From Promethearchaeota archaeon (GTDB taxonomy: Archaea; Asgardarchaeota; Lokiarchaeia; Sigyniarchaeales; SOKP01), in contig JBHLPW010000077.1 of NCBI GenBank assembly GCA_048939015.1, positions 1 to 20,054 of the forward strand: a stretch of 20,054 nt of DNA, given 5' to 3'. A model generated the notes under the pieces. The model searched no databases. It saw only the letters and a program-made list of their open reading frames with translations, and was not told where the DNA came from. A program made the translations under genes and the position numbers. This document shows positions 7,530 to 16,265 of the stretch, piece after piece; position 1 is the stretch's first letter; each line of letters opens with the position of its first letter.

Positions 7530-8744
7530 TTATTGAGGAATCGATATCTCTTTTTTCTCAGGCCATTTTTTTGCATAGCAGCGAACTGGATAATTATTTG
7601 GAACAGCTGCTAAACAACGATTACATGAAACACAAGCTGCTTTTTCTTGTTTCTCAAGTCTAAAATTCTTCACCAAATATGGCTCTCTAATGAATGGACG
7701 TGCCATTGAAATAAAATCTGCAAACTGATTTTCTAAAATCTTTTCCATATAGCTTTTCGTTCTCATTCCACCAACAAGAATTAAAGATAATTCACCCATA
7801 CTTGATTTGATTTCTTTGGCTGCTTCCAGATTATAGCTTTCTTCAAAATCAAATTTCCCTTTCATGTCTTCAAATACTTCTTCAGCTCTAGGTCTTATTG
7901 CATCTGGAAAAAACTGAGCCATTTCTTTAACCGGCACATCACCACGACACATTTTAAATGGTGCAAAAGCTACAGAACCAGCACTAATTTCTATTCCATC
8001 TATTCCTAGATTTCCTAACCATTCAACATATTTTGAGGCAATTTTTGGAGTAATCCCCTCTTTTGGAGTAAAATCAATACTATTGAGTTTCACTAAAATC
8101 GCCATATCTGCAGGTATCACTTTTTTAATCGAAATAATTAATTCTCTCAAATATCGAAACCTATTCTCATCTGATCCCCCCCAATTATCTTTTCTACGAT
8201 TATAAAAGGGAGAAATAAATTCACTTATTAAATATCCATGGGCACCATGTAATTGAATTGCATCAGCACCCGCTTTGGAAGCCCGAATAGCAGCTTTAGT
8301 AAAAGCGTCAATTGATTCATTGATATCTTCTTCAGTCATTTCTTTTGGTTTTGTAAAAGTGACTGGATTCATAATTTGTTTAGAAGGGCCTACAGGGAGA
8401 GCTCCAATATATTTCTTATCAGTTTGTAGCCCTGCATGGCCTAATTGGAACGCTACTTTTCCATTCTCTTGATGAATGGCATCAACCATCCCCTTTAAAC
8501 CAGAAAGCAAATTATCATTATGAATTCCAGTTTGTAGAGGATATCCCTTACCCAAAGGGTGCACATACATCATACCTGTAATGATTAAACCTACTTCTCC
8601 CTTAGCAAGTGAAGTGAAGGTTTTTGTGAGAGTATCAGAAACTTCCCCAGTCTCACTTGCCATGTTTTCTAATACAGCTGATCGTACAAAACGATTTTTA
8701 ACTTCCATTTTACCAATGTTCATTGGTTCAAATAAAATTGAAAT
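7530..8744 (-). CDS. NADH:flavin oxidoreductase (Old Yellow Enzyme family); probable ATT start at 8744
   Basis: KNRFVRSA, QLGHAG, QLHGAHGYLISEFISP, RKDNWGGSDENRFR, SMARPFIREP, C-terminal CVSCNRC. The in-frame extension (I)SILFEPMNIG lies behind SD GAGGTGA. The ORF track starts at ATG 8723. Confidence 0.9.
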   Translation of the reverse strand: MSILFEPMNIGKMEVKNRFVRSAVLENMASETGEVSDTLTKTFTSLAKGEVGLIITGMMYVHPLGKGYPLQTGIHNDNLLSGLKGMVDAIHQENGKVAFQLGHAGLQTDKKYIGALPVGPSKQIMNPVTFTKPKEMTEEDINESIDAFTKAAIRASKAGADAIQLHGAHGYLISEFISPFYNRRKDNWGGSDENRFRYLRELIISIKKVIPADMAILVKLNSIDFTPKEGITPKIASKYVEWLGNLGIDGIEISAGSVAFAPFKMCRGDVPVKEMAQFFPDAIRPRAEEVFEDMKGKFDFEESYNLEAAKEIKSSMGELSLILVGGMRTKSYMEKILENQFADFISMARPFIREPYLVKNFRLEKQEKAACVSCNRCLAAVPNNYPVRCYAKKWPEKKEISIPQ

Positions 8745-8863
8745 CTTAACTCACCTCTTTTAAATCTATAGTGATTTCGCTATTTATATCATAATAACAG
8801 GTTTGTAAATTTATAGTTTTGTCAAGTAATAAAAAATAAATTCAAATGATTTTTACTTAGATT

Positions 8864-9280
8864 ATGTCTGAATCTTCTCCTCTTAAGTCAAAAGGGTTCC
8901 ACCCTTATGGTGATTTAATCGGCTTTGAATTTACTAAATTGAGAAAAGGTTATTCCCAATGTGTTTTGAAAATTAATAAAAACCATTTTAATCCTCATAA
9001 AACCGTCCATGGAGCTGTAATGTATTCCATGGCAGACACAGGTATGGGAGGTGCTTTATATTCTTTATTAGAAAAGAATGAATCCTGTGCCACAGTCGAG
9101 GTAAAGATTACATATTTTAAAGCAGTTAGAGAAGGAATGCTTACCTGTGATACAAAAGTAATTCACAGAGGAAAGTCATTTGGAGTTCTTGAATCCGAGA
9201 TTTTTAATGATGATATTTTGGTCTCTAAGGCTTATGGAACATTTTCAATTTTTCAGATTGATAAACCAAGAGAATACTAA
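8864..9280 (+). CDS. PaaI-family hotdog-fold acyl-CoA thioesterase
   Basis: NPHKTVHGAVMYSMADTGMG (HGG-like motif with catalytic Asp), TVEVKITYFKAV. Confidence 0.88.
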   Translation: MSESSPLKSKGFHPYGDLIGFEFTKLRKGYSQCVLKINKNHFNPHKTVHGAVMYSMADTGMGGALYSLLEKNESCATVEVKITYFKAVREGMLTCDTKVIHRGKSFGVLESEIFNDDILVSKAYGTFSIFQIDKPREY

Positions 9281-9429
9281 AATAATATTCACTTAAAATT
9301 TGTTCGCAATATTCTGACTCTAATTAAGGGGATTATACTTTTTTAAATATTAATTTTAATAGATCCAATTTGTAATTTAAAAAAATAAATTAATTTGCTT
9401 ATTTATTAAAAGAAAATAGAGAAACAATT

Positions 9430-9774
9430 ATGGAAGGAAAAAAATGCCGTGTTGTTGAAGATTATGACTCTCCCTACACAGAGCCATTAATTATGACTAA
9501 AGATGAAATTTTAACAATTAGTGAGAAAGAATGTGAGTGGTCAGGTTGGATTTGGTGTACAAATGAATTTGGAGAGAGTAGATGGGTACCAGAGAATTAT
9601 CTAGAAATTGAGGGCAATAAAGGGAAAATGTTACAAGATTATTATTCAACTGAATTAGTTGTTAAAGTGGGTGAGGAATTAATTATTGAAAAAGAAGAAG
9701 CGGAGTGGTTTTGGGTTAAAAACCAAAAAGGAAAAAGGGGTTGGGTTCCTATTAAAAATGTAGAAATTATATGA
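9430..9774 (+). CDS. Tandem SH3-domain protein
   Basis: Two repeats of the Src-type SH3 pattern: RVVEDYDS...GWIWC...SRWVPENYL and MLQDYYS...WFWV...RGWVPIKNV. Confidence 0.8.
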   Translation: MEGKKCRVVEDYDSPYTEPLIMTKDEILTISEKECEWSGWIWCTNEFGESRWVPENYLEIEGNKGKMLQDYYSTELVVKVGEELIIEKEEAEWFWVKNQKGKRGWVPIKNVEII

Positions 9775-14310: not shown

Positions 14311-14958
14311 TTATGACACCTCTCTATTTGATAATGGGTACTTCTTTAAAAATGAAATAAAATAATATAACCCGATTAGTATAATTATTCCTCCTATGAG
14401 CCCAAAAATAATAAAATCATCTAAATAACTACCTACAATTGGTGTTAGTAAATTAGTTAAAAAGAATCCTAATCCTGCTGCAAAAGCATAATAGTACAAC
14501 CTTGTAAAATCTAAGAAATAAGCCATGACACAAAATGGAATAGTAATGGTTCCAATACCTAAAAATAATGCAATAAATAGAGGTTGTATTACACTATAAT
14601 CGATTATATCTGCAATATTTAATACAAATAATAATAAATTTACAAAAAAAACACCTAATAAAAATATTTTTAGCTTTAATTGTTTTGACTTGCGTTTTGG
14701 TCCAAATTTTACATATCCAACACGAGGAATTGTTATATATTTTTTACCAAAAATAAATATTAACAAAGCAATTATATTCCATGCTAAGATAAAAATAAAG
14801 ATGATTGAGTATCCAAGTGAGCTAAAAAGAAAATTGAATAGTGGTCCCATTCCAAAATTAAAAAATAGCATTCCTACAAATAAATCCCATAAACCATCAT
14901 TAAATACAGATCTATATGCTTTTTTTTCAAGCGATTTCAAATCTATACTCTCAGTCAT
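14311..14958 (-). CDS. Membrane protein, paralog 3 of tandem triplet
   Basis: MTESIDLKSLEKKAYRSVFNDGLWD...ITIPRVGYVKFGPKRK...TRLY...FLKKYPL. Start at ATG 14958 is supported by ATGA overlap, SD GGAGGT and alignment with the two paralogs. Confidence 0.82.
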   Translation of the reverse strand: MTESIDLKSLEKKAYRSVFNDGLWDLFVGMLFFNFGMGPLFNFLFSSLGYSIIFIFILAWNIIALLIFIFGKKYITIPRVGYVKFGPKRKSKQLKLKIFLLGVFFVNLLLFVLNIADIIDYSVIQPLFIALFLGIGTITIPFCVMAYFLDFTRLYYYAFAAGLGFFLTNLLTPIVGSYLDDFIIFGLIGGIIILIGLYYFISFLKKYPLSNREVS

Positions 14959-15599
14959 ATTTTGGCGACCTCCTTTTTTGGTAGTGGATATCTTCGAATA
15001 AAACGAATAAAAATAATTAATCCCATAAAGAAAATGATTGCTCCTGGAATTCCATATGATATTGGCCATCTAAATCTGTAGTCTAAGGAATCATAAATTG
15101 ATTCATTGATAAAAATAGCTAACCAAATAAGCATTCCAATTAAGTATAATCGCGGATATTTTAGTAAGAAGGCTAAAATCACGAATAAAGGCATAAAAAA
15201 TAATCCTATAATTAGGATAAATAGAATTCCTTCTAGGTGTATTCCGGTAAAATTTCCATTTACTACTAGAATTATAAATATTATATGTGTTATGAATTGT
15301 ACGGTCGTGACTATAAATAACTTCTTTCCCGTTGATTTAAGTGATGGTCCTGGTTTAAAAATCCCTGTTCTTGGTTGAATCACATATTTAAGAATAATGA
15401 AAATTGACAAACATGCTATAATAACAAGAATCAAGGGCCACAAAAAATATCTATATGGTGAGGGTAAACTCTCACGAAAAATAGGTCCTAAACCCATGCC
15501 AAAAACTATAAAACCGATACTCATGTCAAATAATCCATGTTGGTGTCCCATCTTGAGAATAGTTTCCTCAATTTTCTTCAAATCTAAATTTTCTGGCAT
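14955..15599 (-). CDS. Membrane protein, paralog 2 of tandem triplet
   Basis: MPENLDLKKIEE...HGLFD...VIQPRTGIFKPG...YPRLY...FIRRYPL. SD AAGGAGG upstream. Confidence 0.82.
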   Translation of the reverse strand: MPENLDLKKIEETILKMGHQHGLFDMSIGFIVFGMGLGPIFRESLPSPYRYFLWPLILVIIACLSIFIILKYVIQPRTGIFKPGPSLKSTGKKLFIVTTVQFITHIIFIILVVNGNFTGIHLEGILFILIIGLFFMPLFVILAFLLKYPRLYLIGMLIWLAIFINESIYDSLDYRFRWPISYGIPGAIIFFMGLIIFIRFIRRYPLPKKEVAKI

Positions 15600-15602
15600 A
15601 AT

Positions 15603-16241
15603 TTATTTCATTTCCTCCTTTGTTAATGGGTATTTCTGTAGAAATTTGATTAAATATATAATCCCCATAATTATTATTATACCACTTATAAGGCTAAATA
15701 CTATTAATGTATCAAAAGGTTCTGGTATAAAAATTGAGAATAAGTCTGATAGAAAGAAACTAATTCCCACCAATATGCCGTAAAGGTAAAAACGGGGATA
15801 TTGTATGAAATATGCTGCAAAACATACTGGAGCTGTTATAAAGAGTAACCCCAAAATTAATCCATCTAGATATCCTGGAAATTCTAGGCTTAATTCAGGA
15901 TTAGTAAATCGGATTATATATAGAACTAAAAGAATAACAAGATTTATTGATAGGACTATGAGAGTTTTCAGTTTACGTCCTTTTCGTTTAAATCCAAATT
16001 TAACGACACCTAATCGAGGTTTAGTAATAAATTTTTTTGCTGTTAAAAAAAAAAATAACCCAATTCCAATAAAAATAAATGTTACAATGAAATCTAAAGG
16101 ATTTGGCAACAGAGGACTAAGACTCATACCCATACCAATTCCTAGAACTAATATACCAAAATAAATATCTAAAATTCCATCTTCGAATGTCGATCTCCAT
16201 GATTTTTTTTCAATTTCCTTTAAATCAATCTTTTCTGTTAT
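15603..16241 (-). CDS. Membrane protein, paralog 1 of tandem triplet; probable ATA start at 16241
   Basis: The frame is open 36 codons upstream of the ORF-track ATG: (I)TEKIDLKEIEKKSWRSTFEDGILDIYFGILVLGIG, which aligns residue-for-residue with the N-terminus of paralog 3. Also ITKPRLGVVKFG, YPRFY, FLQKYPL. Confidence 0.8.
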   Translation of the reverse strand: MTEKIDLKEIEKKSWRSTFEDGILDIYFGILVLGIGMGMSLSPLLPNPLDFIVTFIFIGIGLFFFLTAKKFITKPRLGVVKFGFKRKGRKLKTLIVLSINLVILLVLYIIRFTNPELSLEFPGYLDGLILGLLFITAPVCFAAYFIQYPRFYLYGILVGISFFLSDLFSIFIPEPFDTLIVFSLISGIIIIMGIIYLIKFLQKYPLTKEEMK

Positions 16242-16265
16242 TTTTTTCCACCTTAATATTAATTT

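Follow-up and report, generated by a model that had tools for sequence, protein, structure and literature searches.

Putative Shine-Dalgarno-anchored initiation at AUU, AUC and AUA codons in a genus and family of Loki-type Asgard archaea

The Mollicute and mitochondrial codes (NCBI tables 4, 2 and 5) belong to AT-rich genomes in which ATT, ATA and ATC serve as regular starts. In bacteria (NCBI table 11), AUU, AUA and AUC (AUH; ATH in the DNA) open a handful of genes such as E. coli infC and pcnB, in which the near-cognate codon stands behind a Shine-Dalgarno (SD) sequence, is presumably read by the initiator tRNA and is weaker than AUG. The infC gene encodes a factor that polices initiation fidelity and itself starts at AUU (PMC4705826). 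Both infC and eukaryotic eIF1, which has a poor start context, are autoregulated via their weak starts (PMC4705826; PMC6237735). Reviews of archaeal initiation list AUG, GUG and UUG as the only start codons (PMC7531240, PMC6412873), and the aIF1 of S. solfataricus discriminates against AUU complexes (reviewed in PMC4705826). Here we describe three genes with an ATH codon in the start position on a 20,054-nucleotide contig of a Promethearchaeota archaeon (JBHLPW010000077.1, our contig C89; the whole stretch is called the window). AUH starts are known from bacteria and organelles, and what appears to be new is their occurrence in an Asgard archaeon: in a full-text literature search we found no publication that reports such starts for Asgard or other archaea.

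Isoleucine codons in the start position of three window genes

The genes for OYE (an NADH:flavin oxidoreductase), a winged helix-turn-helix (wHTH) regulator and membrane paralog 1 all lie on the minus strand (Table 1). An earlier note on this DNA had claimed that each of them has an Ile codon at the expected Met1 and no ATG, GTG or TTG between it and the upstream stop, and we found all sites as described. The OYE frame reads TGA GTT AAG ATT (8744-8742), with the TGA two codons 5' of the ATT, and continues with TCA ATT TTA TTT GAA CCA to the first ATG at 8723. In the wHTH frame, the TAA at 14313-14311, which is also the stop codon of paralog 3, is followed by GAA and ATC (14307-14305), and the first ATG is located at 14247. 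In the frame of paralog 1, a TAA (16268-16266) and eight codons without ATG, GTG or TTG precede the ATA (16241-16239), which stands behind AAGGTGG. Its first canonical start, ATG 16133, lies within the first hydrophobic segment (TM1). The GGT of the SD is separated from the start codon by 8 nt in OYE, 10 nt in the wHTH gene and 8 nt in paralog 1. The earlier note had given these distances correctly, and canonical-start genes of the window have the same spacing (SDR ATG 1732, ATG 3441, arsM ATG 5677, paralog 3 ATG 14958 and TTG 18975).

At the orthologous Met1 position, the source genome has ATH, and the other species of the genus either keep ATH or swap it for ATG, GTG or TTG. For OYE, the same-genus genomes have ATT or ATA in four cases, the source genome counted (ATT in G007 and G023, ATA in G011), and ATG or GTG in five (ATG in G013, G015, G017 and G001, GTG in G024). 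For the wHTH regulator we found ATC in the source genome and G005, ATG in about 12 species and TTG in G009, G010, G021 and G035. Paralog 1 starts with ATA in 14 of 15 same-genus orthologues, each time behind AAGGTG(A/G) and an A-rich spacer. The sole ATG, in G012, has no SD. Identity among the orthologues of paralog 1 is 61-90% across residues 1-211.

The predicted domains also reach upstream of the first ATG. The OYE product matches Pfam Oxidored_FMN (PF00724; E 5.2e-65) over residues 4-258 and profile positions 2-262, and the match opens at residue 4, which is 5' of ATG 8723. The wHTH product matches HTH_34 (PF13601, a profile of 80 positions; E 1.5e-30) over residues 27-104 and profile positions 2-79. 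Starts at the downstream ATGs would remove parts of conserved domains, and the upstream placing of the starts in the earlier note stands. These alignments support the three Ile codons being real translation start codons and not ordinary leader triplets. The N-terminal mis-annotation which the same note expected is present in the public record of the contig, where OYE is given in a truncated 397-aa form and the wHTH regulator in a 91-aa form from ATG 14247.

Every ATH-start orthologue of OYE has a motif resembling an SD (GGTGA in G007 and G023, GTGGAG in G011). The four ATG-start orthologues carry none, and a TATA-like box stands upstream of at least two of them, G013 and G015, at a distance of about 25 nt. 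The pairing of SD with ATH, and of a TATA-like box and no SD with ATG, suggests that OYE orthologues switch between leaderless-AUG and SD-AUH architectures. The OYE loci with ATG and no SD were L006, L008, L003 and L010, as contrasted with L001, L002, L004 and L005, and the TATA-like box was seen at least in L006 and L008.

The bases were compared with read-built Logan contigs. Over 8000-9348 and 14102-15715, contigs of run X1 show zero differences, and run X2 covers 14300-14581; therefore ATT 8744 and ATC 14307 are present in the reads. Near 16241 the cover is fragmentary; none of the variants listed there alters the ATA, and this base rests on the orthologues. At 16248, within the SD and spacer of paralog 1, contigs of three runs from two studies contain a 1-nt deletion variant (GGTGG to GGTG) which is the form found in the relatives.

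Table 1. Features of the window, and the aIF1 and initiator tRNA genes elsewhere in the source genome
Feature	Position	Strand	Remarks
OYE / NADH:flavin oxidoreductase coding sequence	7530..8744	-	404 codons from ATT
OYE start codon ATT	8742..8744	-	aligned to Met1 of the orthologues (M-SILFEP)
OYE SD GAGGTGA	8751..8757	-	7-nt match to GGAGGTGA; G of GGT at -11
wHTH (HTH_34) regulator coding sequence	13972..14307	-	111 codons from ATC
wHTH start codon ATC	14305..14307	-	aligned to Met1 of x-AKKKTESxD orthologues
wHTH SD GAGGTG	14317..14322	-	6-nt match; G of GGT at -13; within the 3' end of paralog 3
Membrane paralog 3	14311..14958	-	canonical ATG 14958 behind GGAGGT; 215 aa
Membrane paralog 2	14955..15599	-	canonical ATG behind GGAGGA; internal comparator for the paralog 1 N-terminus
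Membrane paralog 1 coding sequence	15603..16241	-	212 codons from ATA
Paralog 1 start codon ATA	16239..16241	-	aligned to the ATG of paralogs 2 and 3 (M-TExIDLKxxEKK)
Paralog 1 SD AGGTG	16249..16253	-	5-nt match; G of GGT at -11
31-aa hydrophobic micro-ORF	16266..16361	-	from the listing of open reading frames; preceded by a strong SD, AAAGGAGGAGG; flanked by the ABC-2 permease and paralog 1
aIF1 (SUI1) gene, single copy	G000:C27:8581-8895 (locus L056 1426-1740)	+	ATT start behind AGGTTGTGA
Initiator tRNA gene	G000:C27 ~31250-31390	-	pattern search; anticodon CAT, A1:U72, GGG/CCC anticodon stem

SD-led ATH codons in the source genome and its relatives

The source genome is a metagenome-assembled genome (MAG) of 4.86 Mb in 125 contigs, with a GC content of 29.8% and an estimated contamination of 6.5%. 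We screened every stop-to-stop open reading frame (ORF) of at least 100 codons and considered the codons between the upstream stop and the first ATG, GTG or TTG that lie at least seven codons before the latter. A codon was scored as having an SD if its upstream sequence agreed with GGAGGTGA over 5 nt or more, the G of GGT falling anywhere from -13 to -9, and eight AT-rich codons were used as controls. In-frame ATH codons had such an SD in 85 of 3816 cases and the controls in 64 of 11125 (odds ratio 3.9, p 3e-16). With the SD at -12/-11 only, there were 62 ATH codons and 24 controls (odds ratio 7.6, p 1.6e-19). The ATH peak at -11/-12 coincides with the spacing of the ATG genes of the source genome, and ATH triplets in the other two frames of that genome gave no spacing peak. 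The window sites returned by this independent screen were exactly the ATH codons of OYE, the wHTH regulator and paralog 1. Because a screen with fixed criteria picks exactly these sites and the SD enrichment is highly significant, the combination of ATH and SD at the three window sites exceeds chance.

A second tally was anchored on strong SDs: the match had to span 6 nt or more, the ORF 100 codons or more, and a stop had to occur no further than 15 codons upstream. The tally yielded 75 ATG, 30 TTG and 12 GTG together with 28 ATT, 26 ATA and 4 ATC in the source genome, and 42 canonical starts and 4 ATH in the outgroup G065. After the background of other AT-rich codons is subtracted, about a quarter of the strong-SD starts of the source genome are ATH. 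Altogether, ATH starts make up roughly 50-70 genes, or about 2% of the long ORFs. The earlier figure of 3 in about 23 genes, a count for the window, overstates the genome-wide rate. Of 20 further genes with ATH and SD, 17 have a Pfam domain that opens within residues 1-19; the first canonical start follows 15-83 residues after this opening. These further genes include Gtr1/Ras GTPases, transketolase, ApbA, L21e, NUDIX, PTPS, GFO_IDH, BcrAD, TetR, cytidylyltransferase, V-ATPase D, Usp, HMA, DsrE and a rubredoxin-like domain. CTG in the same pre-canonical position had an SD in 4 of 105 cases, three of them at -12, which hints at occasional CTG starts in the source genome.

The same statistic was applied to 800 kb each of three other genomes. 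In G022, a closed genome of the same genus, ATH codons had an SD in 10 of 730 cases and the controls in 3 of 2098 (p 1.6e-4). The sister-family genome G032 gave a weak signal (6/491 for ATH, 3/1385 for the controls). The outgroup G065, a closed genome from another Asgard family with a GC content of 30.5% and an SD on 10.7% of its first ATGs, showed no enrichment (2/599 and 7/1780, respectively). Since this outgroup is equally AT-rich yet unenriched, AT pressure alone is no explanation. Among the credible ATH starts of G022, five have the same ATH codon in the source genome (atpD ATA, two more ATA and two ATT) and one has ATG. These shared codons mean that individual ATH starts are evolutionarily stable. 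The comparison supports the SD-led ATH initiation that the earlier note had proposed for this lineage, as a lineage-specific and conserved trait: the enrichment is found in the source genome and G022 and is missing from an AT-rich outgroup that uses SD. The relatives of the source genome are filed as Promethearchaeota or Hermodarchaeota MAGs from sediments, and on this basis we class the source organism as a Loki-type Asgard archaeon.

Only a minority of the source-genome genes have an SD. TTG is frequent among the SD-led starts (30 of the 117 canonical ones in the SD-anchored tally), and in the window the ABC ATPase gene (18975, minus strand) has a TTG start behind GGAGGT. The TAA of the 31-aa micro-ORF is the in-frame stop located 8 codons (24 nt) before ATA 16241, and paralog 1 is therefore operon-internal. 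For paralog 3, the longest ORF (14311-15069) would give a start at ATG 15069, a product of 252 aa and an overlap with paralog 2; we rejected it as an over-extension because the SD and the orthologues support 14958. We also rejected recoding of the in-frame TAG in the paralog 3 of relatives, since this TAG is an ordinary stop codon. An Rfam scan of the window returned zero matches.

Start codon of the aIF1 gene and the initiator tRNA

The aIF1 gene of the source genome also belongs to the ATH-start genes. An in-frame stop is followed by two codons, the ATT and then the conserved CPxC...CxC Zn-knuckle, and the first canonical start comes after the knuckle. Throughout its family (f1), one to three codons separate the stop from the ATT, and the start is ATT in all 28 family genomes examined. 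In the alignment of these genomes, none of the 7 conserved Ile columns and 7 of the 56 conserved residue columns are single-codon. At the aligned position the sister family (f2) has ATA, GTG or TTG, most other Asgard families have ATG, and one further family has ATA. In the aIF1 protein the basic loop, RRKWG, is retained. Between the groups with ATH and ATG starts we saw lineage substitutions only (IEG to TFVG, CACGG to CASGG), to which we assign no interpretation.

The initiator tRNA gene has two introns, one of 32 nt at 37/38 and one of about 36 nt in the T-loop, and was overlooked by aragorn and RF00005. These programs detect only 13-20 tRNAs in the source genome (20 by RF00005), the introns being the cause. 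In a pattern search of the source genome, where tRNA detection is poor, we found no second initiator-like tRNA gene with another NAT anticodon. The earlier note had proposed inspecting aIF1, aIF2 and the initiator tRNA. The tRNA is ordinary (CAT) and the aIF1 loop is kept, and it is the start of the aIF1 gene itself that is an invariant ATT. Relaxed fidelity of aIF1 or aIF2 would be a possible cause of the ATH starts, and the tuning of expression that the note also raised a possible purpose. The search for a 16S rRNA 3' end in the source MAG gave no rRNA-like match, so the anti-SD sequence is taken as presumed. A tRNA-Sec was also predicted by aragorn and, with the intron option, an unverified 'tRNA-Pyl(cta)' which may be a false call (C77:15344-15436, C40:27483-27584).

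Proposed mechanism, alternatives and significance

The best reading of these results, which we hold with good confidence, is that SD-anchored near-cognate AUH initiation is a habit of this Loki-type Asgard genus and family. The SD:anti-SD pairing would position the 30S pre-initiation complex on mRNAs with a good SD, and the P site would then accept AUU, AUC or AUA. The ordinary Met-tRNAi (CAU) would most likely decode these codons, leaving their third base mispaired, and the proteins would so begin with Met. Such starts are expected to be weaker than AUG, to depend on the SD and to be retained by selection on particular genes. We infer this decoding, the lower efficiency and any feedback through aIF1 from the observed codons, their spacing and their conservation.

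Several points weigh against this reading. It is based on comparison of DNA sequences, no RNA run being among those listed for the locus, with Met as the predicted first residue and Ile as the other candidate. The spacing profile is distorted, since an in-frame TGA arises from GGTGA at -11, and an in-frame GTG from GGTGA at -10 or -13; the controls share this bias. The alignment of aIF1 from the ATH-start and ATG-start groups revealed no interpretable loss in the basic loop, so a 'relaxed aIF1' lacks sequence support. Two of the three window genes start 3 and 24 nt past an upstream stop, where termination-coupled re-initiation could contribute. Furthermore, ORFs with start-less 5' extensions of at least 30 codons are not in excess in the source genome (4.9%, compared with 4.8% in the outgroup). 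It follows that AUH starts form a minority, most or all of them linked to an SD. Given the missing hidden excess, we do not claim widespread SD-less or leaderless AUH starts.

Could translation begin at the first downstream ATG (8723, 14247 and 16133), with the ATH codons being leader triplets behind chance SD-like sequences? The public gene calls adopt these ATGs for OYE and the wHTH regulator, and SD motifs are confined to a minority of the genes. However, the leaders are conserved as protein and align to the N-termini of orthologues that have ATG exactly at the ATH site. The Oxidored_FMN domain would lose its beginning, paralog 1 would be cut in TM1, and the distance from the SD to the downstream ATG would be 28-110 nt. 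In 17 of the 20 other genes, the truncation would remove P-loops, Rossmann motifs or similar elements. We regard this explanation, already contradicted by the comparative data, as very unlikely. Errors of assembly or sequencing, or genes in decay that were recently inactivated by mutation, are conceivable in a MAG of 125 contigs with an estimated contamination of 6.5%, in which AT mutational pressure promotes G to A/T changes. They are extremely unlikely, since ATT 8744 and ATC 14307 are reproduced in independent contigs, many species whose genomes were assembled separately have the same ATH codons in their orthologues, the reading frames are unbroken and conserved, and the equally AT-rich outgroup has no such starts.

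The remaining alternatives accept the AUH codons as starts. In the wHTH gene and paralog 1, both operon-internal, initiation might occur mainly by termination-coupled re-initiation with reduced stringency and not by de novo 30S binding. It is the position of ATC 14307, 3 nt after the TAA of paralog 3, and of ATA 16241, 24 nt after the TAA of the 31-aa ORF, that speaks for it. Yet OYE has no upstream gene on its strand, its neighbour being divergent (plus strand, at 8864), and aIF1 and many of the genome-wide cases are preceded by an intergenic region. The in-frame stop is often merely the TGA of GGTGA, and re-initiation leaves the lineage specificity unexplained. As the main route we consider it unlikely, and it may add to the effect at the wHTH gene and paralog 1. 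It is also quite improbable that AUH is read in some other way, whether C34 of the initiator tRNA is modified, another initiator-like tRNA has gone undetected, or the third mRNA base is edited to G. A second initiator could escape the poor tRNA detection (20 by RF00005, multiple introns), and given genes hold to one ATH codon (ATT in aIF1, ATA in paralog 1), hinting that the three codons are not equivalent. Nevertheless, the single initiator-type gene found has the anticodon CAT, and the genome as a whole uses all of T, C and A in the third position, a range that no one C34 modification known would read. We know of no such mRNA-editing system in archaea.

The proposed SD-anchored AUH initiation shares with canonical archaeal initiation the SD motif, its spacing and an ordinary initiator tRNA, all as for the ATG genes of the source genome, and differs from it in that AUH is outside the listed start codons (PMC7531240, PMC6412873). 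With the bacterial AUH starts it has in common a near-cognate codon behind an SD, a presumed reading by the initiator tRNA, a presumed weakness compared with AUG and a fidelity factor whose own gene opens with AUU. It differs from them in three respects: it occurs in an archaeon with eukaryote-type aIF1/aIF2 and not IF3, it accounts for about a quarter of the strong-SD starts and not for a handful of genes, and a whole genus or family conserves such starts. Mollicutes and mitochondria are reduced bacterial-type systems, whereas the Asgard case shows no sign of a genetic-code change and an AT-rich outgroup lacks the trait. The likeness to eukaryotic eIF1 autoregulation, and to non-AUG initiation controlled by eIF1 and eIF5, lies in aIF1 being the eIF1 orthologue with a weak start kept throughout the family. 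Eukaryotes combine a weak Kozak context with scanning, while aIF1 has a non-AUG start with an SD and no scanning, and its feedback is only presumed.

Since aIF1 has an AUU start of its own, a stringency feedback is plausible. The invariant AUU would tie the aIF1 supply and the output of the AUH genes to initiation stringency, as infC does in bacteria. A more tentative idea, which we think possible but do not favour, is that the AUH starts form a regulon titrated by aIF1, in which a fall in aIF1 raises its own synthesis and that of the approximately 50-70 AUH genes (V-ATPase D, L21e, small GTPases, regulators). If true, archaea would have a counterpart to the autoregulation of infC in bacteria and of eIF1 in eukaryotes.

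In this Asgard lineage, gene callers limited to ATG, GTG and TTG give shortened or wrongly placed N-termini for dozens of proteins in each genome, and the truncated calls lose P-loops, Rossmann motifs, metal sites and first transmembrane helices. Comparative work is affected, since small GTPases and other eukaryotic signature proteins are heavily sought in Asgard proteomes; the source genome encodes many small GTPases as well as L21e. The lineage also offers a natural system for eIF1-type stringency control and for a possible IF3-like or eIF1-like feedback in archaea.

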